Shown here: in pieces, positions 44,056-60,879 of the stretch
How positions within the stretch are numbered: position 1 is the stretch's first letter
How the letters are laid out: the number at the start of each line of letters is the position of its first letter
From: Pontiella sp.
GTDB lineage: Bacteria; Verrucomicrobiota; Kiritimatiellia; Kiritimatiellales; Pontiellaceae
Length of the DNA: 64,000 bases
NCBI GenBank assembly: GCA_050290185.1
Contig: JBNKHE010000001.1
Location: 546,713-610,712, forward strand
Reading direction: 5' to 3'
Notes under the pieces: model-generated
Databases searched by the model: none
What the model was told of the DNA's origin: nothing
Seen by the model: the letters and a program-made list of their open reading frames with translations, nothing else
Position numbers and translations under genes: made by a program

Positions 44056-46512
44056 ATGAGTACTGAAAAACTTCTGATTGTCGGCGGTGTGGCCGGCGGA
44101 GCAAGCGCGGCGGCCCGGGCACGCCGACTCGATGAAAACTGCGAAATCATCCTGTTCGAACGCGGGCCGGATATCTCGTTCGCCAATTGCGGCCTCCCCT
44201 ACCACATCGGCGGAACCATTGCCGAACGCGAAAAGCTGCTCGTCACCACGCCGGAAGCAATGGTCGGCAAGTTCAACCTCGAGGTGCGCACGTTGAGCGA
44301 AGTGGTCGCAATCGACCGTGCTAACAAGCAGATCTCGGTCAAGAACCTGAAAACCGGAGAAGAATATACCGAGTCCTACGACAAATTGATTCTCAGTCCC
44401 GGCGCGGCCCCGGTTCGTCCCCCCATCGCCGGCATCGACAATCCGAAGGTTTTGACGCTGCGCAATCTCGAGGACATGGATCGGATTATCCAAGGCCTCG
44501 AAGGGAAAAAATCGGCGGCTGTAATCGGCGGCGGCTACATCGGCCTCGAAATGGCCGAGGCGCTGCGCGAACGCAAACTAAGCACCACGCTCATCGAGCT
44601 GGCCCCGCAGGTAATGGGCCCGGCCGACCCGGAAATGGCCACGGTTCTTCATCAGGAAATGCGCCTTCTTGGCGTCAATCTGAAACTGGAAACCTCCGTC
44701 ACCGCCTTCGAAACCGCCGGCGATGGCGTGGACCTGATTCTGAGCGACGGCGACCGCCTGCACAGCGACCTGGCCATTCTGGCGATCGGCGTAAAACCGG
44801 AAGCGACGCTGGCCATCAATGCCGGGCTTGAACTCGGTTCCACCGGCGGGATCAAGGTGAACGAAAACATGCTGACCTCCGATCCCGACATCTATGCGGT
44901 CGGCGACGCGGTCGAAATCACGGACTTCGCGACTGGCCAGCCCGCACTCATCCCGCTGGCCGGCCCCGCCAACCGGCAGGGCCGCATTGCCGCCGACAAT
45001 ATTTTCGGTCGCACCAGCGCCTATAAAAACACACAGGGCACGGCCATCTGCAAGGTCTTCAACATGGCGATCGGTATGACCGGTCTCAGTGAAAAAATGG
45101 CCAGGCGGCAGGGCATCACGTATGAAAAGGTCTATGTCCATCCGGCCAGCCACGCCTCGTACTATCCCGGCTCGCATCCCATCTCGCTCAAGCTCCTATT
45201 CGATCCGGAAAACGGCAAGGTGCTGGGCGCGCAGGCGGTCGGCGCCGACGGCGTCGACAAGCGCATCGACGTCATTGCCGTGGCCATCCGTGCCGGCCTG
45301 ACGGTCTACGACCTGGAAGAGATGGAGCTGACCTATGCCCCGCCGTTTGGCTCGGCCAAGGATCCGGTCAACTATGCGGGCTTTGTGGCCTGCAACGTGT
45401 TGCGCGGCGACGCAAAGCTGTTCCACGTCGAAGAGGCCCTGAAGCCCGCCGACCACCAGAAGCTGATCGACGTGCGCAACCCCGAAGAAATGGCGGGCGG
45501 CACGATTCCCGGCGCCAAGAACATTCCCCTGGGACAACTCCGCGACAAGCTCGACGAACTCGACAAGGACCGCGAATACCTCGTTTTCTGCCAGGTCGGC
45601 CTGCGCGGCTATCTCGCCTGTCGCATCCTGACCCAGAATGGATTCAAGTGCCGCAACCTGACCGGCGGCTATAAAACCTATATGATGGTGACGGCCCACC
45701 AGCCGGACACCATTCCCGAAAACGAAACCACCTTCGACGATCCCGGCGATGACATCGTAGGCGTGTCCGCTCCGGCCTCCGAAGCTCCGGTCGTGGAAAC
45801 GATCGATGCCATCGGACTCCAATGCCCGGGCCCGGTTCTTCAGCTGGCCAAGGGACTGGAACGTGTCCGCAACGGCGAAGCAGTCGGGATCCTGTCCAAC
45901 GATCCCGGCTTCGCCGCCGACATCCCGGCGTGGTGCCACTCGACAGGAAACCAGCTGCAGTCGCTGGAACCCGAAAAGGGCGGATACCGGGCGGTGATCG
46001 TTAAACAAAGCGCTTCGGCCTGCACGATGGCGATGGGTTCCGGAGAAAAGCGCTTCACCAATGTGGTGTTCAGCAACGATCTCGACAAAGCACTGGCCGC
46101 TTTCATCATTGCCAACGGCGCCGCCACCATGGGCTACAAAGTGACGCTGTTCTTCACCTTCTGGGGACTGAACATCCTGCGCAAGGAAGGCCCGGTTTCC
46201 GTGCAGAAAAACCTCGTGGAAAAAATGTTCGGCTTCATGATGCCCAAGGGCCCCAAAAAGCTGGCCCTCTCCCAAATGCACATGGGCGGCATGGGTGCCG
46301 CCATGATCAAGGGGATCATGAAACAGAAGAACGTCATGAGCCTGCCGGAACTGATCGACACGGCCGTCAACAACGGCGTGAAACTAGTGGCCTGCTCTAT
46401 GTCCATGGACCTGATGGGGATCAAACGCGAAGAACTAATCGATGGCATCGAGGAAGGCGGCGTGGCAATGTACATTGATGAGCTTGGCGGCAACGCCAAC
46501 CTATTCATTTAA
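44056..46512 (+). CDS. CoA-disulfide/persulfide reductase-rhodanese-TusA(SirA)-DsrE fusion
   Basis: GGVAGGASAA, redox SFANCGLPY, GGGYIG, YAPPF; rhodanese FCQVGLRG; TusA-like DAIGLQCPGP; DsrE-like FFTFWG...ACSMSMDLMG. Confidence 0.92.
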   Translation: MSTEKLLIVGGVAGGASAAARARRLDENCEIILFERGPDISFANCGLPYHIGGTIAEREKLLVTTPEAMVGKFNLEVRTLSEVVAIDRANKQISVKNLKTGEEYTESYDKLILSPGAAPVRPPIAGIDNPKVLTLRNLEDMDRIIQGLEGKKSAAVIGGGYIGLEMAEALRERKLSTTLIELAPQVMGPADPEMATVLHQEMRLLGVNLKLETSVTAFETAGDGVDLILSDGDRLHSDLAILAIGVKPEATLAINAGLELGSTGGIKVNENMLTSDPDIYAVGDAVEITDFATGQPALIPLAGPANRQGRIAADNIFGRTSAYKNTQGTAICKVFNMAIGMTGLSEKMARRQGITYEKVYVHPASHASYYPGSHPISLKLLFDPENGKVLGAQAVGADGVDKRIDVIAVAIRAGLTVYDLEEMELTYAPPFGSAKDPVNYAGFVACNVLRGDAKLFHVEEALKPADHQKLIDVRNPEEMAGGTIPGAKNIPLGQLRDKLDELDKDREYLVFCQVGLRGYLACRILTQNGFKCRNLTGGYKTYMMVTAHQPDTIPENETTFDDPGDDIVGVSAPASEAPVVETIDAIGLQCPGPVLQLAKGLERVRNGEAVGILSNDPGFAADIPAWCHSTGNQLQSLEPEKGGYRAVIVKQSASACTMAMGSGEKRFTNVVFSNDLDKALAAFIIANGAATMGYKVTLFFTFWGLNILRKEGPVSVQKNLVEKMFGFMMPKGPKKLALSQMHMGGMGAAMIKGIMKQKNVMSLPELIDTAVNNGVKLVACSMSMDLMGIKREELIDGIEEGGVAMYIDELGGNANLFI

Positions 46513-46527
46513 TACAAGGAGAACATT

Positions 46528-46944
46528 ATGTGGACCTATGAAAGCGCCGTAGACTGGAAGCAGGGAAAGACCGGGGAAACCCGCAGTGCCGGCAAACCCA
46601 CCGTCGAGGTGGCAACGCCCCCGGAATTCGGAGGCCCGGAAAACATCTGGACGCCGGAAGAGCTGCTCACCAGCTCCGTGGCGACCTGTATCATGACCTC
46701 GGCGCTGTTCTTTCTCGACCGCGCGAAGATCCAACTGCGCTCCTACAAGAGCAATGCCACCGCCACGATGGAGAAAGGTCCTGCCGGCCTGACCATCACC
46801 GGGATCAAGGTGGCTGTTAGCGTCGAACTGGAAGATGCATCGCAAGAGGATGCGGCACGCAAGGCCGTGGAACAGGCGGAAAAAACCTGTCCGATTTCCA
46901 ACTCGCTGCAATGCCCCGTTGCACTCGAACTTCAAGTCGGCTGA
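46528..46944 (+). CDS. OsmC-like protein
   Basis: 'PPEFGG..WTPEELL..SVATC' and 'CPISNSL' (two Cys). Confidence 0.88.
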   Translation: MWTYESAVDWKQGKTGETRSAGKPTVEVATPPEFGGPENIWTPEELLTSSVATCIMTSALFFLDRAKIQLRSYKSNATATMEKGPAGLTITGIKVAVSVELEDASQEDAARKAVEQAEKTCPISNSLQCPVALELQVG

Positions 46945-46957
46945 CCGGTTGCATCCC

Positions 46958-47395
46958 ATGGCCATTCCAAAAAAGGATATCACCGTAAGCTTCCCGGGAG
47001 GGAAGCAGGTGCAGGCGCATTTCAACGGACACTCGGTTCTGACGGACCAGTCGGTGAAGAACGGAGGCAAAGGCTCGGCTCCTGAGCCGTTCGACCTCTT
47101 CTTTGTCTCGATGGCCACCTGTGTCGGCATCTATGTGCTGGAATTCTGCACCAGCCGCGAATTGGATACCGACGGCCTCGGGGTACATCTGGTCAGCGAA
47201 CTGGATCCCGCGGAAAAGCGGTTTCCGAAGGTCTCCATCGACATCGCCCTCCCCCAGGGATTTCCGGAAAAATACCGCAAGGCCATCTGGCGGACCGCCA
47301 ATCTTTGCAGCGTCAAGAAACACATTCTCAACCCTCCGGAATTCAACATCTTGCTCGACGGGCATGCGGTGGACGCTGAACCTCCGGAAGGTTAG
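46958..47395 (+). CDS. OsmC-like protein (second)
   Basis: 'TDQ...GG.GSAPEPFDLF..SMATC' and 'CSVKKHI'. Confidence 0.88.
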   Translation: MAIPKKDITVSFPGGKQVQAHFNGHSVLTDQSVKNGGKGSAPEPFDLFFVSMATCVGIYVLEFCTSRELDTDGLGVHLVSELDPAEKRFPKVSIDIALPQGFPEKYRKAIWRTANLCSVKKHILNPPEFNILLDGHAVDAEPPEG

Positions 47396-47643: not shown

Positions 47644-48390
47644 CTATTCCTTCCAAGGATACTTATGCTCGGAGAGTCCGGAGGGCTCGTTGAACTCGCG
47701 AACCAGGGTTTGCTCCTCGGACAGCTTGACGATCAGGCGGCAACGGATCCCATGCACATCCCCTTCGGCAGGTTTGCTCGATATCGTAAAGCGGGAAGTG
47801 AACCGCTCATTCAGGATTTCGACGGCATCCGTCTTGAATCTGATCTTCCGGCCGGCATCGATATTCGGTAGCTTTTTCTCACCGAAATGAACTTTCTGCT
47901 CGGGCTCTTTGGCTCCCCGCTGGCCTTGTTCATAATAGATTTTGTATTCGACGCGGGCATCAAGGATCGGAAAGGATGACTTGTTTTCAAACTCAATGAT
48001 ATAACCGATCTCCTCGTATTCTTGTTCCCCGCCCTTCTCCTGATCAGTGTCGCCATAGTCATAACTCACATTGAAGATGATCTCCTCTTCCCGCTCGCTG
48101 AAGACCTCCTCATCGGTAGAAATTTTCAGGTTTCTGTCGGAAATCAGCTCGTTGGCCTTATACCAATCCGTGATGTAGTCCTGGTCGGATTTGGAGAAAC
48201 CGCTGATCTTTACCGTCATGCGCCGGCCGTTTTCAAGCTCAACCGTTACGCGGTCACTCTCCGGCTCGCATTTCACGACCTTGAGCATGATGGACCGGCC
48301 CTGTTCATCCATGAATACGCGAAACTCTTCCCCGGCAAGACTGCATAGGCAAGAGACCGCAACGATCAGCAATACGACATAACTCTTCAT
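47644..48390 (-). CDS. Secreted protein with an N-terminal SHD1-like domain
   Basis: Signal peptide then 'FRVFMDEQGRSI...FSKSDQDYI'. Confidence 0.7.
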   Translation of the reverse strand: MKSYVVLLIVAVSCLCSLAGEEFRVFMDEQGRSIMLKVVKCEPESDRVTVELENGRRMTVKISGFSKSDQDYITDWYKANELISDRNLKISTDEEVFSEREEEIIFNVSYDYGDTDQEKGGEQEYEEIGYIIEFENKSSFPILDARVEYKIYYEQGQRGAKEPEQKVHFGEKKLPNIDAGRKIRFKTDAVEILNERFTSRFTISSKPAEGDVHGIRCRLIVKLSEEQTLVREFNEPSGLSEHKYPWKE

Positions 48391-49887: not shown

Positions 49888-50586
49888 TTATAGATCAAAC
49901 GTGTGACGCTCGTAATCTGCTCGAGAATACGTATCAACCTTGCTAACAGCCTGCTTCCTGATCACATTCAACTTTTTTTCATACGAACTCTTATTGGCAT
50001 CGATCGCGACCATTTCCCCTTTGTCATTTTCGACGACAACCAGGTAGCCCTCATACTGCCACCCCGATTTCCCACCTCCATATGAGTCCCAATACGAGAC
50101 CGATCCAGAAGCATTCAAGGAGACCGAATTCTTCTTATCAAAGGAAAATGAAACCTCGTTCTTACCAATGACAACCCTACTGTCTCCTCTGTAGCTCTCT
50201 GCAATGATATATAAGTACGCCTTGAACTTCTGGGTACAGGGCGACTTGCTGACTTTCTTTACTGCCACATTAACCGTTATCGTGTCGCGGTCGTGCGTTG
50301 AATAGCCGTTGTCACTCAGCGCCTCCGTGGATTTATCCCGATCAACCTCGATTTTTATTTCGGGAGGAACTACACTGGCCAGATATTCATTATCCTTCGC
50401 GCAGAGCTTGTTCATGGGAACCATGATGCGCGTGCCATCCTGCTTTTCCAGAACAACCTTATTGCCCGCCATCTGGATAAACTGGGCCTCGATATTTTGC
50501 ATGCCGTCCTTCGACGACCAAACCCGAAACTCCGCATGAACATTCACCACCATCAAAGCAACAGCGACCAATATGTATTTTTTCAT
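49888..50586 (-). CDS. Secreted SHD1-domain protein
   Basis: Signal peptide then 'FRVWSSKDG..IEAQF...VVLEKQDG...VPMNKLCAKDNEYL'. Confidence 0.75.
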   Translation of the reverse strand: MKKYILVAVALMVVNVHAEFRVWSSKDGMQNIEAQFIQMAGNKVVLEKQDGTRIMVPMNKLCAKDNEYLASVVPPEIKIEVDRDKSTEALSDNGYSTHDRDTITVNVAVKKVSKSPCTQKFKAYLYIIAESYRGDSRVVIGKNEVSFSFDKKNSVSLNASGSVSYWDSYGGGKSGWQYEGYLVVVENDKGEMVAIDANKSSYEKKLNVIRKQAVSKVDTYSRADYERHTFDL

Positions 50587-51705: not shown

Positions 51706-52752
51706 CTAGACTGGAAATTCCATCCAGAAACAACATCCGCCCAAAGTGCTTTCTTCCACACCGCAAGTTCCATTGTGCGCCTGGCATACGTCGCTAACGA
51801 TGGCAAGCCCGAGCCCAGCCCCTTCCCGGCCACTCGCACTGCCCCGTTCAAACGGCCGGAAGATGGAGGCCCGCTGGGCCCCCGTCAATCCGGGCCCCGA
51901 ATCGGAAACCTCTATCCGTATCCGTGTTTTTGAGGGGGCCGTCAAGACCAGTTCAATACGGCCACCCGAAGGCGTGAATTTCAGCGCATTATCCACAATG
52001 TTCGAAAGCGCCTCGCGAATCAGATCCGGCACACCATGTATGACCGGCATATCCACAGAATTGCTCAACTCCACCCTGATGCTGCGGAGTTCCCCAATCA
52101 TGACGGCTTCAGCGACAACGCCCTGAGCCAGCTCCTGCAGGTCTATGGACCCACGGTATTCGTCCAGCGCCCCACCCGCGGCACGGGCCAGCAACAGCAA
52201 CTGGTTTACCGTTTGGCTCAGCCGAACCGTGCTGTCCAGGATATCGACGATCACATCGCGATATTCCTCTTCGGTACGCGGGTGCTTCAGACAGACCTCG
52301 CTTTTGGTCCTGATGGCAGCCAGCGGATTCCGCAATTGGTGGGATGCGTCGTAGCTGAAACGATGCATGCGGTCCAGCAGCTCCTGGTATTCGTCGAACG
52401 TCTCGTTTAGCGTTGCGGCAAGGCGGCCGATTTCATCTGAAGGATGCTCCACTGCGATACGATCCTCCAAACGCCCGTGGCTGATGCTCTCCGCCTGTTC
52501 CACCATGGAACGCCATGGACGAAGCAACCAGCGCGAAACGTTCCATGCCACCAGCAAACTCACCGGGAAGAGTACCAGCATAACGATGCCGATCACCATG
52601 ACTTCTTCGAGCTCTTCCGACAGCACAGCGCCGCTCTGAAAGCACTCGTACAGATCGTATGAAATCAGGACGATGGCAATTAGAATGAAGTTGACCAGGG
52701 TATAAATGGTTAGGGAACCGAAAAACCGCCCCCGAATTGTTCTTTTTTTCAT
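51706..52752 (-). CDS. Sensor histidine kinase (2 TM, HAMP, HisKA, HATPase)
   Basis: 'DASHQLRNPL', 'NIVDNALKF', 'DSGPG', 'GAGLGLAIV'. Confidence 0.95.
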   Translation of the reverse strand: MKKRTIRGRFFGSLTIYTLVNFILIAIVLISYDLYECFQSGAVLSEELEEVMVIGIVMLVLFPVSLLVAWNVSRWLLRPWRSMVEQAESISHGRLEDRIAVEHPSDEIGRLAATLNETFDEYQELLDRMHRFSYDASHQLRNPLAAIRTKSEVCLKHPRTEEEYRDVIVDILDSTVRLSQTVNQLLLLARAAGGALDEYRGSIDLQELAQGVVAEAVMIGELRSIRVELSNSVDMPVIHGVPDLIREALSNIVDNALKFTPSGGRIELVLTAPSKTRIRIEVSDSGPGLTGAQRASIFRPFERGSASGREGAGLGLAIVSDVCQAHNGTCGVEESTLGGCCFWMEFPV

Positions 52753-53441
52753 TTTGCCTCTTTCAGCACAAATCCGACTCCGCGCACCGTATGAAGCAAT
52801 GGGGGCAATCCGCCGATATCGAGTTTCTGTCGCAACCGCGAGATGTGCACATCGATCACATTATCCATGGAGGTCATCGTTGAGCGGACCTTCCAGATTT
52901 CGAGTTGCAGCATTTCCCGCGTCGCAACCTCGCCCTGCAATCCGGCCAGATAGGCCAGCAGGTCAAATTCGCGGGGCGTCAGATCCAGCATCTGACCGGC
53001 CCGGATCGCAGTCCGGCTGGACAGATCGATGGAAAGGTCGCCGACCTTTTGCTGCACCATGGTGCGTTGCACATGGCGCAGCTGGATGCGGATGCGAGCC
53101 AGCAGTTCCTCGAAAGCAAAGGGTTTAACCAGATAATCGTCGGCTCCGCATTCCAGACCTTTTACACGGTCCGCCACATGGGAACGCGCCGTCGTGATGA
53201 TAATCGGAAGCGTCGGATCGGTTTGGCGGACGACATCCAGAAAGTCCAAACCCTCGCCATCCGGCAAACCCATATCCAACAGAACCAACGAAGGGGATTC
53301 CCCGGCAAGAAACTCCTTGGCCGATTTGATGGAGTTGGCCACCCGGCACGCATAGCCCACTTCACACAGGCCAAGCGAAAGGGCATCTGCCAAACTGGTG
53401 TCATCCTCAACGATTAGGATCGAAATATTGTTTCCGGTCAT
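52749..53441 (-). CDS. OmpR-family response regulator
   Basis: 'IVEDD', 'LDMGLPD', 'GADDYLVKPF', 'LTPREFDLL', 'TVRGVGF'. Confidence 0.96.
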   Translation of the reverse strand: MTGNNISILIVEDDTSLADALSLGLCEVGYACRVANSIKSAKEFLAGESPSLVLLDMGLPDGEGLDFLDVVRQTDPTLPIIITTARSHVADRVKGLECGADDYLVKPFAFEELLARIRIQLRHVQRTMVQQKVGDLSIDLSSRTAIRAGQMLDLTPREFDLLAYLAGLQGEVATREMLQLEIWKVRSTMTSMDNVIDVHISRLRQKLDIGGLPPLLHTVRGVGFVLKEAK

Positions 53442-53503: not shown

Positions 53504-53522
53504 ATCTTAAGGTATCTTCAGG
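53504..53522. promoter_or_regulatory. Tandem direct repeat, candidate OmpR-family operator
   Basis: ATCTTAAGG-T-ATCTTCAGG (10-bp period) just upstream of a weak TTGAAC-17 nt-TAGGTT promoter. Confidence 0.5.
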
Positions 53523-53587
53523 GTAGTTTATTTGAACTTGCCCGGCATCGCAACTAGGTTGGCTCCGAATAAACCAAGGAAGTGCGC

Positions 53588-54172
53588 ATGAATAAAATGT
53601 TATTGAAGCAACTGGCCGTACTCGCGGCAGGCATTACGCTAACCCATGCTTCGGTGAGGGCCGAGACCCTTGCCGCAAAGGCAGATATCAAATTCAAGGG
53701 CTCGTCAACCCTGCACGATTTTGAAGGAACGGTGACAACACAACCGTTCGCTGCCGAGTTCAAACCGGGTAGCGGCGAAGGGCAATGGATGGTCAAGGCC
53801 CGGACTGCGCTAGAGGTGCGGAACATGACGACCCACAACAAGAAGCGCGACAAGAATATGTTCAAGATGTTCGATCTTCAACACTTCGCACAGATCGAAG
53901 GGGAGCTTCCTGAAACCCTGATTTCAGAAGCAGGCCGTACCGATGCAAAGCTGCATCTAAAAATACGCGATGTTGAGGGAGATGTTACAGCCACGATTTC
54001 CGACGTCCAGCGTACTGAAAAACAGATCAGTTGCACCATGGCCTTCCCGGTGTCACTCAAGGCATTCAACCTGAAGGGCCCGTCCGTTATGGGTTTAATC
54101 CGCGTGGACGAAATGGTTTATGTTGAATGCACCGTCAAAGGAGAGATCGGCGAATCCGTCGAAGGAAACTAA
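53588..54172 (+). CDS. YceI-family lipid/polyisoprenoid-binding protein
   Basis: Signal peptide, 'FKGSSTLHDFEG', 'RDKNM', 'AFNLKGPS'. Confidence 0.8.
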   Translation: MNKMLLKQLAVLAAGITLTHASVRAETLAAKADIKFKGSSTLHDFEGTVTTQPFAAEFKPGSGEGQWMVKARTALEVRNMTTHNKKRDKNMFKMFDLQHFAQIEGELPETLISEAGRTDAKLHLKIRDVEGDVTATISDVQRTEKQISCTMAFPVSLKAFNLKGPSVMGLIRVDEMVYVECTVKGEIGESVEGN

Positions 54173-54175
54173 ACC

Positions 54176-55342
54176 ATGAAAACATACATCCACCACATTG
54201 AGCCGCTGCTTCCGCAGTATTCCTATCGACAGGATTATGCACGCGACCGCATGGTTGGCTGGTTGCCAGGCAAGCGCAACCGCCGCCTGATCCACGGCAT
54301 CTACGACCACTCCGGCATCGAAACGCGATACAGTGTGCTTCCCGATTTCGGGCCCAATGCCGAACCCACCCTGTTCCACGAGGATGATAACGGAAGGATC
54401 ATTGAACCCACCACCGGCGAACGCAATTCGTACTACCGAGCCTCCGCCCGGAAAATGGTAGTGGAAGCAGGGCGAAAGGCGCTGGAAAAAGCGGAAGGTT
54501 TCAGCGCCGGAGACATTACACATGTGGTGACCGTCTCCTGCACCGGCTTCTACAATCCCGGCCCGGACCTCGATCTCATCAAGGGTCTCGGCCTACCGGA
54601 AAGTACGGAACGCTACAATATCGGGTTCATGGGTTGCTATGCCGCCTTCCCCGCCCTGCGTATGGCCCACCAGTTCTGCAAGGCCCGTCCCGAAGCCGTG
54701 GTGCTTGTCGTTTGCCTCGAACTTTGCTCGCTGCACCTCCAGTTCCGCGAAGAAGCGGACAGCCTGCTGGCCAACTCCCTGTTTGCCGATGGTTCGGCGG
54801 CCGTCATCGTGAGTGCCCGCACACCAGCGGAAAACCGGCCGGCCCTGGCGATCGAATCGTTTGCCTCGGCCCTGGCCCCCGAAGGGGAAAGCGAAATGGC
54901 CTGGGAGGTCGGCGATCGCGGTTTCGATATCCGGCTCTCCACATACGTCCCGAATATCATTGCCGGCAACATCGGCGCTATCGTCGACGGCATTTTGAGC
55001 GATACGTCCTGGAACCTGAACGATATCGGAACATGGGCGGTTCATCCCGGCGGTCGCTCCATCGTAGACCGGGTTGAAAATGAACTGCACCTGAAGCCCG
55101 AACAGCTGGAAGACTCGCGCGAGACATTACGCCAATATGGCAACATGAGCAGCGTTACCGTGTTGTTTGTACTCAACCGCATTCTCAACCGCGAGGGACT
55201 GGACGAGAACCATCCCATCTGCGCCATGGCCTTCGGACCCGGCCTGACTATTGAAACCGCTCTGCTTGAGTATCATCCGGCACATTCCAATGCCTTGCAG
55301 AAAGCACCAGCACAGGCTCTGGCGGGAACGTTGCAGGCTTAA
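54176..55342 (+). CDS. Type III polyketide synthase (chalcone synthase-like)
   Basis: Cys-His-Asn triad: 'GFMGCYA', 'VHPGG', 'GNMSS'; also 'VSCTG', 'ELCSLH', 'LFADG', 'AFGPGL'. Confidence 0.95.
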   Translation: MKTYIHHIEPLLPQYSYRQDYARDRMVGWLPGKRNRRLIHGIYDHSGIETRYSVLPDFGPNAEPTLFHEDDNGRIIEPTTGERNSYYRASARKMVVEAGRKALEKAEGFSAGDITHVVTVSCTGFYNPGPDLDLIKGLGLPESTERYNIGFMGCYAAFPALRMAHQFCKARPEAVVLVVCLELCSLHLQFREEADSLLANSLFADGSAAVIVSARTPAENRPALAIESFASALAPEGESEMAWEVGDRGFDIRLSTYVPNIIAGNIGAIVDGILSDTSWNLNDIGTWAVHPGGRSIVDRVENELHLKPEQLEDSRETLRQYGNMSSVTVLFVLNRILNREGLDENHPICAMAFGPGLTIETALLEYHPAHSNALQKAPAQALAGTLQA

Positions 55343-55354
55343 AGGCCGCACCCC

Positions 55355-57418
55355 ATGAAACGTATCCTCCAACGAACAGCCATTCTGTTCGCAACCGTTC
55401 TGGTTGCGGGCGTTGCCGCGTGGTTTGTTGGCGACCTGGGAATTGAACAGGACAACCAGTCCATGCAATCCGACGAAGCCCGCGATGATACGGCATATGC
55501 GACCTTCCAAAGGGAATTCGACAGTGATTACGAACTTATGGTCGTCGTTACTCGCGATACCCTGAATTCGGAAACTGGATGGAAACGACTACAGGATGAT
55601 ACGCAGTGGCTTCGGGGACTGGACGGAGTTCGGGAGGTTCATCTTCCATCTTCGATCGAACCGAAGCCGGGGCTGGTATCTGATGACGGCAAAACGGTCG
55701 GCATCCTGCTGGTCTTGCGTTCCGACCAACCACGGGACGAGCGCTCGCAGTTGCTGGAAACATTAAAAGCTGAAGCCCCGCAAAAAATCGAGGGCGTTGT
55801 ACGGGTTGTGGGACTTCCGCTATTGAAAGCAAGTGTAGCCAGCCATATCGCCCGCGATCAGCAGGTGGTCACCCCCCTCTCAGGAGTTGCGATGATGATC
55901 ATGCTGGCCCTCCTGTTCCGACGGGTGGCCGGCGTTGTGATTCCCATGCTGATCGTTGGATTAAGCCTGGTCACCACACTGGGTCTCTATGCCGCCTGCG
56001 GATTGGAACTCAATAGCATCACCTCGTTGCTTCCGGCGGTTGTTATTGTGCTTTCGGTTTCTGTCGCCGTCCATCTTCTTGATGCATGGATCCATGCGGT
56101 TGATGACGGGAAGCGCGGACAAGACGCAATCCATTCCGCCATGCAGGCGGTGTGGAAACCCTGCGTCTTTACGGCAGCCATGACGGCGGCCGGACTGCTT
56201 TCGCTGATATTGAGTCCCATACCCGCCGTGCGCCTCTTCGGCCTTTTTGCAGCCGTCGGCGTCAGCTTTTCGGTGATCTTCGCTTTTGCCGTTCTTCCGA
56301 TCGCACTCAGCTGGACTCTCGAACGGCCTTCACGAGCCAAGCCCCCCTGGATGCAGCGATTCCTGAATGGACTGGCTGAACTGCCCGTGCGCCATCCTAT
56401 CGTCATTCTACTGGCGGCCACGTTCATCACCGCTCTGAGCGCATGGGCGGCATCGAAAATTGAAAACAACACCGATCTCATCCATTTCTTCAAGAAACAT
56501 GATCCTATCTTTGTTGCCCACGACAGCGTGAACCACTCACTCGGAAGTGTTCGTTCGCTCGACCTGCTGGTTCGAAAAGCCGACGGCTCCGCCCTCGACC
56601 TGCAGAAAGACCTCCCAGTACTGACGGAACTAACGGATGAAATTGAAAACATCCCGGACGTTTTCGGAACCAGTTCCATCGTTGATTTCGCTTCTGACCT
56701 GCAAGCCGCTCCTTCCGGGGCTCCCCTGCCGACGATGGACAGACTGTTGGCCGATGAAGGCCGGCTCATGCGCGTTCAGGTTCATCTCGGCGACATCGGC
56801 TCCGCCCGGGCATCAGACATCTGCGACCGGATCACGGAAATCGCCAAAACCACCCCTGAGGCCGGCTGGGAGATCACGCCGACCGGCGCCTACTATCAGG
56901 TCGTTCGCGACTCCAACAAGCTGGTAGTGACCCTAATTAAAAGTTTCGGCATCACACTGGCTATCGTACTGGCATCCACCTGCCTGCTGTTCCGCTCGCC
57001 GGCCGTGCTGATTCCCGCCTTCATTCCCAACATCCTCCCAATCATCTGGGGAGCTGGACTGATGGGAGTGCTCGGCATCGACCTCAGCACAGCCACCACC
57101 ATGGTAGCCGCGGTCGTGATTGGGTTGGCCGTCGATGACACCATTCACTATCTCCATCACTTTCAGACCTACCGGCATCTGCCGGCCACCGAGGCTACCC
57201 GCGCCACCACCAAACGCATTGGGCGGGCCCTGGTCGTTTCATCCATCGTGCTGGTCGGCGGATTCTGGATGGGTGCCTTTGGCAGCTTTATCCCCACAAA
57301 TACATTCGCCTTGCTGACCGGATGCATGATGGCGTCGGCACTTTTTTGCGACCTACTGGTTCTGCCAGCCTACCTGAACCTCACTCATGCCCAACCCCAC
57401 CCGAGGAAACCCCTATGA
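55355..57418 (+). CDS. MMPL/RND-family membrane exporter
   Basis: Two repeats of a soluble domain plus TM bundle; 'IGLAVDDTIHY' motif. Confidence 0.88.
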   Translation: MKRILQRTAILFATVLVAGVAAWFVGDLGIEQDNQSMQSDEARDDTAYATFQREFDSDYELMVVVTRDTLNSETGWKRLQDDTQWLRGLDGVREVHLPSSIEPKPGLVSDDGKTVGILLVLRSDQPRDERSQLLETLKAEAPQKIEGVVRVVGLPLLKASVASHIARDQQVVTPLSGVAMMIMLALLFRRVAGVVIPMLIVGLSLVTTLGLYAACGLELNSITSLLPAVVIVLSVSVAVHLLDAWIHAVDDGKRGQDAIHSAMQAVWKPCVFTAAMTAAGLLSLILSPIPAVRLFGLFAAVGVSFSVIFAFAVLPIALSWTLERPSRAKPPWMQRFLNGLAELPVRHPIVILLAATFITALSAWAASKIENNTDLIHFFKKHDPIFVAHDSVNHSLGSVRSLDLLVRKADGSALDLQKDLPVLTELTDEIENIPDVFGTSSIVDFASDLQAAPSGAPLPTMDRLLADEGRLMRVQVHLGDIGSARASDICDRITEIAKTTPEAGWEITPTGAYYQVVRDSNKLVVTLIKSFGITLAIVLASTCLLFRSPAVLIPAFIPNILPIIWGAGLMGVLGIDLSTATTMVAAVVIGLAVDDTIHYLHHFQTYRHLPATEATRATTKRIGRALVVSSIVLVGGFWMGAFGSFIPTNTFALLTGCMMASALFCDLLVLPAYLNLTHAQPHPRKPL

Positions 57419-59415
57419 GCAATCCATCCATGAACCATACCCTATCGCAACGTTTCTTTGCCCTCATTTACGGGCTCGTATGCCACATCACTTTTGGCGC
57501 CGCTGTCATCGCCATGGCCACCTCCTTGTTTACCGGCCTGCGCTTCGGCATCGGCCCGTTCCATGGCTTGAGTAGCCTCCTCGCCAATGCCGCATTACTG
57601 GCCACCTTCCCGGTCAGCCACTCGTGGCTCCTGTCCCCCAAAGGCCGCCGCTTCATGGCCAAGCTGGTTCCTTTTGGAATCGGCCCAAAGATTTCAATGA
57701 CTGTTTTTGTGACCATCTCCTCCCTGCAATTGCTCGCCGCCTTCGTGCTCTGGTCCCCCTCCGGTATCGTATGGTGGCAGGCAGGGCCGGGGATGGCCAT
57801 TTTTCTTGGCACGGTTGCAGTCGGCGCATGGTTGCTTCTCGGCAAATCGATGTCTGATGCACAGTTGGACCTTCAGCTTGGCCTCGTTGGCTGGTGGGCG
57901 GTATTCCGCAACCGAAAGGCCGTCTACAAGCCCTTCTCCACCCATGGCCTTTACCGGTTTGTTCGCCAACCCATCTATATCTCATTCGCATTGCTCCTTT
58001 GGCTTACCTCGGCATGGACGCCCGACCAGCTCGTACTTGCCTTGGCCTGGACCGGCTATTGCGTCATTGGCGCCGCTCTCAAGGAAAAACGTTTCATCCG
58101 CTACTTCGGTGATGCCTTCAAATCCTACCAGCAACAAGTTCCGTTCTGGTTCCCCACCCTGACCAACAAACACGAGGAGAAAAATATGCCTAACCTTTCC
58201 ACCAAAAACGAACAGGATGCCGACATTATCATCATCGGCGCCGGCCCTATCGGCCTGTTGCTCGCCAATCTGTTGGGTAAGCGCGGACTACACGTCATCG
58301 TTGCCGAACGCCGTACCCATCCGCCCAAAGGTTCGATGGCCATCGGCATCACTCCGCCTTCACTGACGATTCTCAAGGAGCTTTCGCTCGATCATGAATT
58401 TGTCGGTCAGGGCATACAGATCACCGAAGCATCTGTGTATGAAAACGGACAACGGCTCGGAGAGGTCAATTTTTCCAAGCTTCCGTCGGAACACCGTTGC
58501 ATCCTCTCGCTGCCGCAGGCCAAAACCATTTCACTACTCCGAAAAAACCTCTCCAACTATCCATCGGTTATCCTGCTCGACGGCATGCAGTTCATCAGCA
58601 GAACGGAAACGGCGAATGGCGTCCGAGTGCGGTTGCAGGATGTGGACTCATCTGCCTATTCCGATTTTTCCGCCACTTATCTGGTCGGTTGCGACGGCCA
58701 TCGCAGCGCCGTGAGAAACCATGTTCAAATTCCGTTCCCTGGCCGGTTCTACCGTTCGCAGTTTTTCATGGCCGACTTCAACGACACTACCGACTGGGGC
58801 AAAGAGGCTCGCCTCTATTTCGGCTCCCGTGGATCTGTCGAAGCCTTCCCCCTGTCCCGCAGCCAGCGTCGCTGGATTGTACAGATGCCGCTTAAGACCC
58901 GATCCGATGCAGACCTTCTTGGCGCAACGGTTGTGGAGCAGGTTGGCAAGAGAACCGGCGTTGATCTTTCCGGCCAACCCCCTGTATTCGAAAGCTTCTT
59001 CCGCCCGCAACGGCGGCTGGCGAAAACCTACCGGCGCGGCCGGGTTCTGCTCTGCGGTGACGCCGCACACGTTTTGAGCCCGATCGGAGGTCAGGGCATG
59101 AACACTGGATTTGCCGATGCCGCCCACCTCGCTGAGGCTGTTGCAACCGCACTGGAGACTCCGGAATCCGCCGACCTTGCGTTTGCCGAATACACCAAAA
59201 TCCGCCGCCATGCCTTCAATATAGCGGCCAGCCGTGCCGCACGGGGAATGTGGCTTGGAACCCGAAAAGGTCGTTTACCCTCCCAGCTGAGACAGTTGCT
59301 GATCGGACAGGTGTTGTTGCGTACGACAATCCGCGAACGGCTCGCCCACTATTTTGCCATGCTTACCATTCCCGGCAATAATACGAATACCTCCAAACGA
59401 AAGGTCACTGCATAA
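57415..59415 (+). CDS. Fusion of an MddA/ICMT-like integral-membrane methyltransferase and an FAD-dependent monooxygenase
   Basis: N-half multi-TM with 'GLYRFVRQPIY...KEKRF...Y..QVP'; C-half GAGPIG, 'GCDG..SAVR', 'GDAAH..SPIGGQGMNTG..DA'. ATGA overlap with the MMPL stop. Confidence 0.85.
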   Translation: MSNPSMNHTLSQRFFALIYGLVCHITFGAAVIAMATSLFTGLRFGIGPFHGLSSLLANAALLATFPVSHSWLLSPKGRRFMAKLVPFGIGPKISMTVFVTISSLQLLAAFVLWSPSGIVWWQAGPGMAIFLGTVAVGAWLLLGKSMSDAQLDLQLGLVGWWAVFRNRKAVYKPFSTHGLYRFVRQPIYISFALLLWLTSAWTPDQLVLALAWTGYCVIGAALKEKRFIRYFGDAFKSYQQQVPFWFPTLTNKHEEKNMPNLSTKNEQDADIIIIGAGPIGLLLANLLGKRGLHVIVAERRTHPPKGSMAIGITPPSLTILKELSLDHEFVGQGIQITEASVYENGQRLGEVNFSKLPSEHRCILSLPQAKTISLLRKNLSNYPSVILLDGMQFISRTETANGVRVRLQDVDSSAYSDFSATYLVGCDGHRSAVRNHVQIPFPGRFYRSQFFMADFNDTTDWGKEARLYFGSRGSVEAFPLSRSQRRWIVQMPLKTRSDADLLGATVVEQVGKRTGVDLSGQPPVFESFFRPQRRLAKTYRRGRVLLCGDAAHVLSPIGGQGMNTGFADAAHLAEAVATALETPESADLAFAEYTKIRRHAFNIAASRAARGMWLGTRKGRLPSQLRQLLIGQVLLRTTIRERLAHYFAMLTIPGNNTNTSKRKVTA

Positions 59416-60164
59416 TGAATGCCCGCTTCAACCTGAAACCCCTGGAATACATCGGCGCCCCCGAATCCAAGCAAACGTTCAACCGCAGCCTGTTTGCCGA
59501 GGTCGCCCCGAAATACGACTTCATCACCAAGGCGCTTTCCTTCGGACGCGACTCGGCGTGGAAACGCAGCCTACTCGCCTGCTTGCCGGAAACCGCTTCG
59601 CTCACATGCATTGATCTTGCCTGCGGGACGGGCGATCTCACCCGCATGCTGGCTGAACGCTACAACAGCGGAAAAATCACCGGACTTGATCTCACGCCCG
59701 AGATGCTCGCTATTGCCGACAAGCGAACCGATGCCTTCAATGTCTCGTTTGTGGAAGGCAGTATGGCTGACCTTCCGTTCGATGCTGACAGTAGTGACAT
59801 TGTTACCGGAGGGTATGCCCTGCGAAACGCCCCCGACCTGAACCAGACGTTGGATGAAATCGCCCGCATTCTACGGCCCGGCGGATATGCCGCCTTTCTC
59901 GACTTCTCCAAACCAAAGAACAGAACCGGTCAGGCCATCTGCCATTTCCTGCTCAAGTTCTGGGGCGGACTCTGGGGACTGCTACTCCATGGCAACCCTG
60001 ACGTCTACGGCTATATCGCTGATAGCCTGAAACTCTATCCCGACCGCATCGAACTCCGTGACCGTTTTGCAAAACGCGGATTCGGGCTACACAGCAGCAC
60101 CCGCTTTTTTGGCGGATTGCTCGAAATCGTCGTATTCAAAAAAAAGGAGCCGCATGCTGCCTGA
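59415..60164 (+). CDS. UbiE/MenG-like SAM-dependent methyltransferase
   Basis: 'FAEVAPKYD...LSFGRD..WK', 'DLACGTGD', 'YALRN', 'RILRPGG...LDFSKP', 'Y.YI.DS'. Confidence 0.85.
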   Translation: MNARFNLKPLEYIGAPESKQTFNRSLFAEVAPKYDFITKALSFGRDSAWKRSLLACLPETASLTCIDLACGTGDLTRMLAERYNSGKITGLDLTPEMLAIADKRTDAFNVSFVEGSMADLPFDADSSDIVTGGYALRNAPDLNQTLDEIARILRPGGYAAFLDFSKPKNRTGQAICHFLLKFWGGLWGLLLHGNPDVYGYIADSLKLYPDRIELRDRFAKRGFGLHSSTRFFGGLLEIVVFKKKEPHAA

Positions 60165-60879
60165 TTTCGCTATACGTTCCAGCATGCCTGAGCTGATGGA
60201 CGACCCGGCCTGCTCCAAGGAGTTGCTGTTACGCACCGTTCGGCAGTTTGCATCGATCAACCGGCTGGTTGCGCGCTACCGGTCCATTCTCAAGCGCTGG
60301 GTGCTGGCCGACATGCTTAAAGCTCCGAACCGGCCCTACCATCTGGTGGACATGGGGGCTGGGGGATGCGATATCGATGTCTGGTTGCTTGGTGCCGCCC
60401 AACGGCTCGGCCTCAACCTGCGCATTACCGCCTGCGATCTGGATCAGCGCATCATCGATTATGCCCGCTCGACATATGGACAGACCTATGGGCTGAGTAT
60501 CCGACAGATGGATCTACTGGCCAGCCGCCCCGGAGATCGGGTCGACTACGTCTTTGCCAACCACTTCCTGCACCATCTGCCCAATGAGGATATCATCCGT
60601 CTGCTTCAATTCTGGAAACCCCACGTGACACGTCGCATGGTGTTCAGCGATCTGGAGCGCAATCCCCTGGCCTATCTCGGATTTTCCGCTCTTTCGCTCT
60701 TCTACCGTAAAAGCTTTGCGCGCTCCGACGGCCTCGTCTCCATCCGGCGCGGCTTCCGCTCCGGAGAGCTCGAATCGTTATCCCGCGAAGCTTTGCCGGA
60801 CACTGCGAGCGCGGTACATCGCCTCCCGCTGGGCCGGCTGGCATTCTGCGTTGAGGGAAATATGGCGGAAGACACCTGA
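60154..60879 (+). CDS. SAM-dependent methyltransferase of the type found beside type III PKS genes
   Basis: 'PELMDDP', 'DMGAGGCD', 'NHFLHHL', 'DLER', 'DGLVSIRRGF'; AGGAG RBS. Confidence 0.85.
   Translation: MLPDFAIRSSMPELMDDPACSKELLLRTVRQFASINRLVARYRSILKRWVLADMLKAPNRPYHLVDMGAGGCDIDVWLLGAAQRLGLNLRITACDLDQRIIDYARSTYGQTYGLSIRQMDLLASRPGDRVDYVFANHFLHHLPNEDIIRLLQFWKPHVTRRMVFSDLERNPLAYLGFSALSLFYRKSFARSDGLVSIRRGFRSGELESLSREALPDTASAVHRLPLGRLAFCVEGNMAEDT

Follow-up and report, generated by a model that had tools for sequence, protein, structure and literature searches.

What would a bacterium that has its own menaquinone pathway do with an operon that joins a type III polyketide synthase (PKS) to a second enzyme of the UbiE family? 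The question is raised by a stretch of 64,000 nucleotides from Pontiella sp. (Verrucomicrobiota; assembly GCA_050290185.1, contig JBNKHE010000001.1, positions 546,713 to 610,712), here called the window, in which six open reading frames (ORFs) lie on the plus strand at 53588–60879. They encode a YceI-like protein, the PKS, an MMPL transporter, a membrane domain fused to a flavin monooxygenase (FMO), a UbiE-like methyltransferase and a PRK06202-like methyltransferase. We call the N-terminal membrane domain of the fusion, a member of the MddA/ICMT-like 'KE' subfamily, the KE domain, and reserve FMO for the flavin part. We think it rather probable, with ample room for doubt, that the operon makes a methylated alkyl-hydroquinone or alkylquinone lipid when a sensor is triggered, and that this lipid acts in the periplasm as an envelope-protecting or antioxidant compound and not as the main electron carrier. 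The operon is an undescribed, enlarged form of the alkylresorcinol and alkylquinone pathways, and two of its features stand out: the recruited UbiE and an ICMT-fold domain of a lysine type.

A conserved, tightly coupled operon

Successive junctions measure +3, +12, −4, −1 and −11 nucleotides, in agreement with the first-pass annotation of this DNA, which had described six co-oriented genes that overlap or lie at most 12 nucleotides apart; all genes of the operon are translationally coupled. Compared with two close relatives, the ratio of nonsynonymous to synonymous substitution (dN/dS) is 0.08–0.26 across all seven coding parts. The six genes, the tight junctions, the PKS triad and the fusion are thus real, conserved and under purifying selection. 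There is no sign of a recent foreign insertion, since the GC content of the cluster (0.568) is near that of the genome (0.543) and the locus occupies the identical cysE–rpmI site genus-wide, in all congeners with assembled flanks. The functional unit reaches left past 53588 to a kinase and regulator pair at 51706–53441. This pair and the conserved box beside it were absent from the gene set on which the earlier pathway interpretation had been built, and that interpretation is upheld here in part.

A likely alkylresorcinol synthase

The PKS (54176–55342, plus strand) has the N- and C-terminal Chal_sti_synt domains and belongs to the chalcone synthase superfamily. Its Cys154/His290/Asn323 triad, described as intact in the earlier annotation, is invariant in all 14 aligned PKSs. 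So is W243, which aligns with a Trp of Steely1 and with a Leu of PKS18 and of an algal enzyme. W243 is putatively the equivalent of ArsB W281; ArsB and ArsC were not among the PDB matches listed for the PKS. A Trp at the cyclisation position goes with resorcinol formation in ArsB and PkqA, according to the portions of two studies drawn on here (PMC6274091, PMC9927152).

The same active-site motif is carried by PKSs from planctomycete and Bacteroidota trios (operons of methyltransferase, oxidoreductase and PKS, discussed below). In a quick tree of 45 rows, all kept, with long branches, the window PKS lies nearer these trio enzymes than the actinobacterial-like PKS of locus L083. The nearest named relatives, at 73–87% identity, are Pontiella or Pontiellaceae records, which makes the host a Pontiella-type member of Kiritimatiellia. 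Judged by its residues, with the invariant W243 and a motif common to the trio PKSs, the enzyme is likely an alkylresorcinol-type synthase, in line with the type proposed for it before.

The fusion of a membrane domain and a monooxygenase

The fusion (57415–59415, plus strand) consists of the KE domain at 57415–58185, delimited from profiles, Atlas features, alignments and a structural model, and a class A flavin monooxygenase with an aromatic hydroxylase fold at 58186–59415, recognised from FAD_binding_3, motifs and a fold search. It forms one open frame in all five relatives checked, the linker lacking Met in three, and there are many full-length fused homologues, including records named Pontiella agarivorans, Brevifollis, Roseimicrobium and Opitutales. 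The fusion noticed in the earlier annotation is therefore genuine, and a lost stop codon was rejected as its explanation. In the window strain an internal GAGGAG precedes an ATG at 58186, so that a separate translation start there is possible. The model (mean predicted local distance difference test score, pLDDT, 87.7) shows a helical N-terminal domain, a disordered linker at residues 250–265 and the monooxygenase domain. The last of these is closest in fold to PnpA, HspB and p-hydroxybenzoate hydroxylase (PHBH; Z 43.1 and 40.5 over 376 residues). Together with the GxGxxG, DG and GD motifs, these matches place it among the class A flavin monooxygenases, in support of the FAD monooxygenase named before.

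The KE domain belongs by profile and Atlas features to the same membrane family as MddA and ICMT, but scores only 99.6 bits on the MddA profile NF045656 (cut-off 270) and so falls outside MddA; genuine MddA homologues (L068 and L069) score 356 and 338 bits and keep the His of the RHP motif and the Glu-Glu pair. A PDB search with the single KE sequence gave no match, and the KE profile aligned weakly with archaeal ICMT 4A2N (E 0.016). In this weak alignment His126, Glu167 and Tyr179 stand opposite Gln185, Lys223 and Phe235 of KE; Glu167 is presumably part of the ICMT cofactor site. Lys replaces this residue, the first Glu of the pair, in 196 of 196 KE-type proteins, and most also have Gln for His and Phe for Tyr; these are the proteins, out of 240 fetched, that fit both motif patterns, and the pattern itself demanded the second Glu. 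In ICMT His126 borders the pocket for S-adenosylmethionine (SAM), according to the part of a docking paper drawn on here (PMC12643142). With the Glu of ICMT and MddA replaced by Lys throughout, the three methyltransferases counted in the first-pass annotation are unproven as a set: the UbiE-like and PRK06202-like families hold, while the altered cofactor-site residues and the low score make KE doubtful as a third.

Other fusions occur as well, of PKS with monooxygenase (L051, genome G025) and of monooxygenase with methyltransferase, and records P0094 and P0100 are listed among them. The alternative fusions (L051, P0094, P0100) suggest that the enzymes act as a complex.

Two methyltransferases and the predicted product

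The UbiE/MenG/Coq5-family paralogue (59415–60164, plus strand) reaches 167.4 bits on TIGR01934 (cut-off 158.35), and residues 18–224, most of its length, align with Coq5 4OBW, which puts it within that subfamily. Unlike typical UbiE, MenG or Coq5 genes it is a second copy, scores below all equivalog cut-offs and lies outside the menaquinone cluster. Identity to the genome's own MenG is 28–29%. The concern that it might simply be the housekeeping menG was dismissed, since a higher-scoring MenG (C9:103203–103865; 222 bits, passing NF001244) sits in the menaquinone cluster among mqnD-like, UbiA, ubiX and mqnA-like genes. The paralogue is likely a ring C-methyltransferase, to judge from its family.

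The last gene (60154–60879, plus strand) encodes a class I SAM methyltransferase of PRK06202-like type. It scores 158.8 bits on NF004851, below the cut-off of 243, as do the trio methyltransferases of planctomycete locus L033 (175.9) and Bacteroidota locus L030 (156.6). This is the methyltransferase family of both trios, and the window enzyme is 27% identical to that of L033 (E 1e-17). At the other end of the operon, the YceI-like lipid-binding protein (53588–54172, plus strand; PF04264 27.5 bits, cut-off 23.7) has an N-terminus that reads like a signal peptide, and the MMPL/HAE3-type transporter (55355–57418, plus strand), of the resistance-nodulation-division (RND) class, has 687 residues, 12 predicted transmembrane (TM) helices and two MMPL Pfam stretches, and scores below the TIGR00921 cut-off.

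Considering these enzymes together, a plausible sequence of reactions can be drawn. The PKS would condense an acyl-CoA or an acyl carrier protein-bound chain with three malonyl-CoA to a 5-alkylresorcinol; one hydroxyl would receive an O-methyl group from the PRK06202-like enzyme; and the monooxygenase, an O2-dependent enzyme that the KE domain would keep at the membrane, would hydroxylate the ring beside the alkyl chain, these two steps yielding a 2-alkyl-6-methoxy-1,4-hydroquinone. That compound is the alkyl analogue of UbiE's natural substrate, which would explain the recruitment of UbiE. The paralogue would then add the ring methyl, and the product is likely a 2-alkyl-3-methyl-6-methoxy-1,4-benzoquinol or benzoquinone, the alkyl analogue of demethoxy-ubiquinone. 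The MMPL protein may move the lipid across the inner membrane, and YceI may carry it. O-methylation, hydroxylation and UbiE-type methylation are the best-supported chemistry in a scheme of which we infer every step. The proposed head group is the one given for Streptomyces polyketide quinols (PMC9927152, Table 2, the part of that paper drawn on).

The scheme could be carried further. A complete non-isoprenoid ubiquinone mimic, an alkyl-dimethoxy-methyl-benzoquinone built from fatty acid in Kiritimatiellia and other Verrucomicrobiota and serving as an inducible, high-potential quinone for O2 respiration, would need two hydroxylations by one monooxygenase and three methylations, and we regard it as very unlikely. 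If true, the three methyltransferase-like genes would match, one of them being a new Lys-type ICMT-fold enzyme, in a lineage without a ubiquinone pathway and possibly, in some relatives, as the only quinone.

UbiE/Coq5 enzymes act on 1,4-hydroquinones, and this bears on a different outcome, a hierridin-like product: a phenolic lipid that is fully O-methylated and hence non-redox, bears additional ring methyls and serves in the membrane or in signalling. Its appeal lies in the homology of the PRK06202-like enzyme to that of the planctomycete trio, in four congeners that retain only PKS, FMO and this methyltransferase (G009, G019, G023 and G025, with PKS fused to FMO in the last), and in HidA, which methylates both phenolic hydroxyls according to the portions of two papers drawn on here (PMC10896814, PMC6836626). 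Double O-methylation would, however, block the action of a UbiE/Coq5 enzyme on the 1,4-hydroquinone, and the trio oxidoreductase resembles the window FMO only at the level of motifs: the FAD enzymes of L030 and L033 best match TIGR02032, a geranylgeranyl-reductase-like family, whereas the FMO is of the PRK06184/PHBH/PgaE type, and the pairwise E value of 0.013 falls short of orthology. We therefore consider a hierridin-like product improbable, if worth bearing in mind.

Association of the KE and UbiE families with the PKS

Across a sample of 301 genomes drawn from the phylum, the UbiE subfamily (E <= 1e-35) occupies 27 places in 26 genomes; at 17 of these a type III PKS is present (in G006 split over two contigs), and two more are FMO-UbiE-methyltransferase blocks at contig ends. 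In a quick tree this block is joined to two distinct PKS clades. The link between the UbiE paralogue and the PKS is strong, not exclusive. For the KE domain, 12 of the 13 strong matches inside the phylum occur together with the PKS.

Several observations weigh against the favoured quinone pathway. Eight of the 27 UbiE places have no PKS nearby: in G325 a kinase, regulator, YceI and KE domain stand beside UbiE at a locus without PKS, and seven others lack one within ~7 kb, six of those seven genomes having no type III PKS above the Pfam cut-off. Outside the phylum most KE domains have no PKS beside them: 12 of 80 metagenome loci show one (11 of the same clade, one distant and on the opposite strand), many of these contigs being short and some redundant. 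The best-scoring solved PKSs include makers of pyrones and phloroglucinols. RND transporters of the MMPL/HAE3 type as a rule have acidic residues in TM4 and TM10; here the Asp-Asp pair of TM10 is kept, and TM4 has no acidic residue, nor does it in the 36 closest homologues. In most relatives the MMPL gene is missing or replaced by that of an unrelated small protein, which makes it accessory: of the export step proposed earlier, the gene is there and a place in the core is not. In Cyanobium the trio methyltransferase family carries out O-methylation, in Gimesia probably C-methylation, according to the portion of PMC10896814 drawn on here. In that same portion the planctomycete study obtained the core alone and describes a knockout without phenotype in growth or ampicillin resistance.

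These neighbourhoods also invite a reading as two modules, in which the PKS product is a simple resorcinol or pyrone, and YceI, MMPL, KE and UbiE bind and methylate, and so detoxify, phenols or quinones from outside. A UbiG-like methyltransferase follows KE immediately on the 3′ side, without PKS, in 21 of the 80 metagenome loci, and in three of them KE is preceded by MMPL and a small protein of ~170 residues; the locus of G325 and the UbiE genomes in which no type III PKS was found fit as well. Set against this are the 12 of 13 KE matches that occur together with the PKS within the phylum, the fusion of KE to a monooxygenase that reduced clusters keep along with the PKS, and the translational coupling of the whole operon. 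We hold the two-module reading to be quite improbable, and retain the single pathway. The KE neighbourhoods are matched no less well by a membrane partner of soluble phenol-modifying enzymes than by a methyltransferase. We see in KE a likely membrane partner that presents the lipid, and its methyltransferase activity is unproven.

Two further observations concern these families. Stand-alone KE-type genes and the UbiG-like methyltransferase gene (for example at L087, L115, L126 and L129) form an uncharacterised, translationally coupled two-gene unit, and the two methyltransferases tested pass TIGR01983. Distant UbiE-subfamily members at L163, L164 and L165 lie 3′ of what reads as arginine-biosynthesis genes, in genomes in which neither a type III PKS nor a menaquinone marker was found.

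Quinone and respiratory background

The first-pass annotation had raised the question whether the genome lacks men, mqn or ubi pathways. The genome (95.5% complete) has a futalosine menaquinone cluster on contig C9, where genes of the mqnA/D family stand with those for a UbiA prenyltransferase, ubiX and MenG, and it has mqnC on C5; menD, menB and ubiB gave no match over cut-off. With its own menaquinone cluster and its own MenG, the host does not need the operon product as a menaquinone replacement, and that candidate was rejected for the window genome.

A bd oxidase and Rieske/cytochrome b genes with a ccoNO-like cluster (ccoN below cut-off) show that the host uses O2. The Rieske protein, cytochrome b, a seven-heme cytochrome c and the ccoN/ccoO-like genes stand in one cluster (G000:C7:13071–21800). 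In such a host the same quinone could serve as an auxiliary respiratory carrier beside menaquinone, as in mycobacteria and Streptomyces spores. Polyketide quinones and menaquinone do coexist in Streptomyces, according to the part of PMC9927152 drawn on here. Within the genus, a heme-copper-family match is present in 14 of 15 PKS-carrying genomes versus 13 of 23 non-carriers, an association among kin that is confounded by completeness and not decisive. Four genomes (G314, G305, G268 and G205; L151, L152, L153 and L160; 92–95% complete) combine a different PKS clade with the FMO-UbiE-methyltransferase block and gave no match to mqnA/D or menB; they also lack matches to heme-copper or bd oxidases, which counts the other way, and are candidates either for a sole quinone that is polyketide-derived or for a non-respiratory role. 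Moreover, MMPL and a periplasmic YceI would draw the lipid off the respiratory membrane, and the orthologous PKS turned up in no more than 13 of the 36 congeners sampled. An auxiliary respiratory role is thus conceivable and, in our estimation, unlikely. Envelope protection is favoured over respiration because menaquinone is present, because the operon has genes for export and a periplasmic carrier, and because some carriers show no terminal oxidase.

Relation to known systems

The closest precedents are the planctomycete trios and HidABC, the hierridin system of cyanobacteria. In the portion of PMC10896814 drawn on here, of 96 planctomycete type III PKSs 58 belong to an operon of methyltransferase, oxidoreductase and PKS that is related to hidABC, the trio PKSs tested made C15 and C17 alkylresorcinols, and the operon of 'Saltatorellus ferox' runs to five genes, among them one for a lipid/isoprenoid-binding protein and two for methyltransferases. 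Our sequence comparison used the L030 and L033 enzymes, and HidABC is likened by description, from the parts of three papers drawn on (PMC10896814, PMC6836626, PMC8086630). Like the trio and HidABC, the window operon brings together a PRK06202-like methyltransferase, an FAD enzyme and a type III PKS in which the active-site motifs agree, with a long-chain alkylresorcinol core predicted, and like that of 'Saltatorellus ferox' it has a lipid-binding protein and two methyltransferases beside the PKS. Besides its different FAD enzyme, it departs from the trio in gene order, the PKS preceding the tailoring genes, and in the addition of the UbiE paralogue, the fused KE domain, MMPL and a dedicated two-component system.

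In the SrsABC system of Streptomyces griseus and PkqABC of Mycobacterium smegmatis, the resorcinol already carries its ring methyl, which derives from methylmalonyl-CoA, whereas in the window pathway that methyl would come from SAM through the UbiE paralogue. The logic of PKS, methyltransferase and flavoprotein hydroxylase and the predicted head group are otherwise the same, as far as the portions of PMC9927152, PMC13730376 and PMC10896814 drawn on here describe them. SrsB, moreover, is an ICMT-family protein, and the window encodes an ICMT-like membrane domain too, but one that is related to MddA, forms part of a fusion and has a changed cofactor site, in a Gram-negative host with YceI and MMPL. 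The Srs and Bps systems named earlier as precedents therefore share the logic, although the planctomycete and hierridin trios and 'Saltatorellus ferox' are closer. As read from its genes, the operon works like the trio and the Srs/Pkq systems and is a member of neither as defined.

CepAB of 'Entotheonella' likewise pairs a phenolic-lipid type III PKS with a methyltransferase that has MenG among its closest Swiss-Prot matches, but the portion of PMC7064976 drawn on here describes two genes, with CepB uncharacterised and poorly covered by MenG, and no hydroxylase, carrier or regulator. Comparable pairs of PKS and UbiE-like genes occur in G004, G331 and G226.

The full gene set had not been recognised before as a characterised cluster, and in a search with most subscription journals and MIBiG outside its reach, no publication was found with the set, nor any combining three of YceI, type III PKS, MMPL, UbiE and alkylresorcinol. 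Should the proposed chemistry be true, the operon would represent a second way of making the polyketide-quinone head group, via a recruited UbiE, in a Gram-negative phylum in which we found no polyketide-quinone route described. The operon also brings to light an ICMT-fold subfamily, widespread and uncharacterised, in which the Lys is invariant and which partners soluble phenol-modifying enzymes. The system is tractable: proteins named for a described species (Pontiella agarivorans, P0026 and P0256) match the fusion and MMPL, natural deletions form a series at a single place in the chromosome, and the dedicated regulator could serve as a switch for the pathway.

Control of the operon

Divergent from the operon lie genes for an OmpR-family response regulator (52749–53441, minus strand), recognised from profiles and its co-conservation with the operon, and a HAMP-HisKA-HATPase sensor histidine kinase (51706–52752, minus strand), assigned from Pfam and NCBIfam profiles, TM prediction and synteny. 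The likely regulator start is 53441, preceded by an AGGAGG site. Both genes accompany the operon in Pontiella and in the Kiritimatiellia families f11, f12 and f34. The kinase has two TM helices and an outer loop of ~20 residues in which Glu36 and Glu50 are invariant and Glu47 nearly so; a cation or membrane cue, sensed through this short acidic loop, is a candidate signal.

Alignment of the intergenic regions between regulator and yceI revealed a 16-bp box, CTTA(A/C)-N6-TTCAG (53506–53521), a predicted regulator-binding site kept in all 11 aligned Pontiella regions. At the held-out locus L035 the box scores 32.2; the null maximum, taken over 2000 random windows, is 14.2. Related quasi-palindromes were spotted by eye at distant loci, of which only L065 exceeds the null maximum; the box is kept where the regulator is present, and three reduced clusters, whose intergenic stretches are short, showed none there. 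It stands just 5′ of the −35 element of a likely promoter read from the sequence (53532–53560, plus strand; −35-like TTGAAC, 17 nucleotides, −10-like TAGGTT), whose TTG, A and T columns are invariant in the alignment, downstream of the box. A scan for consensus promoters and terminators found nothing above shuffled sequences and did not pick up this pair. It is likely that the regulator binds at 53506–53521, and the conserved box suggests that the neighbouring sensor pair switches the operon. No wider regulon was found in the genome, the sole other strong site lying on contig C52. That contig (G000:C52; 876 bases, AT-rich; second-best box match) is unlike the remaining genome.

Variant forms and neighbouring genes

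The MMPL-containing form occurs in G002, G006, G017 and G034 (contig cut in G034). In G001, G029 and G035, the last without UbiE, the ~170-residue protein takes the place of MMPL, and this is also the form seen in other families; G004 has PKS and UbiE, and G011 the PKS alone. In the quick tree, which has long branches elsewhere, the short forms nest within a clade whose outer branches have YceI and KE, so they are likely reductions of the larger operon.

The ~170-residue protein has a signal-peptide-like start and fills the MMPL slot of most non-Pontiella forms (for example L025:8771–9286, L058:8453–9052, L082, L084 and L086); in three PKS-less contigs it sits between MMPL and the KE domain. 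It gave no NCBIfam match at 1e-8, no usable Atlas match and no homologue in the window genome (G000), Pfam lying outside the search. Forms without UbiE (L072:2310–3173, L077:831–1691 and L078) have another SAM methyltransferase 5′ of yceI, with RebM/MitM-like best matches and an N-terminal motif that we take to recall tocopherol and plastoquinol ring C-methyltransferases; it is possible that this enzyme is a non-orthologous replacement of UbiE.

Elsewhere in the window, two secreted-looking proteins are encoded at 47644–48390 and 49888–50586, one with an SHD1 domain and the other without a Pfam match. An 818-residue protein at 44056–47395 is presumably a CoA-disulfide reductase-rhodanese-TusA-DsrE fusion, and is followed by two OsmC-like genes.

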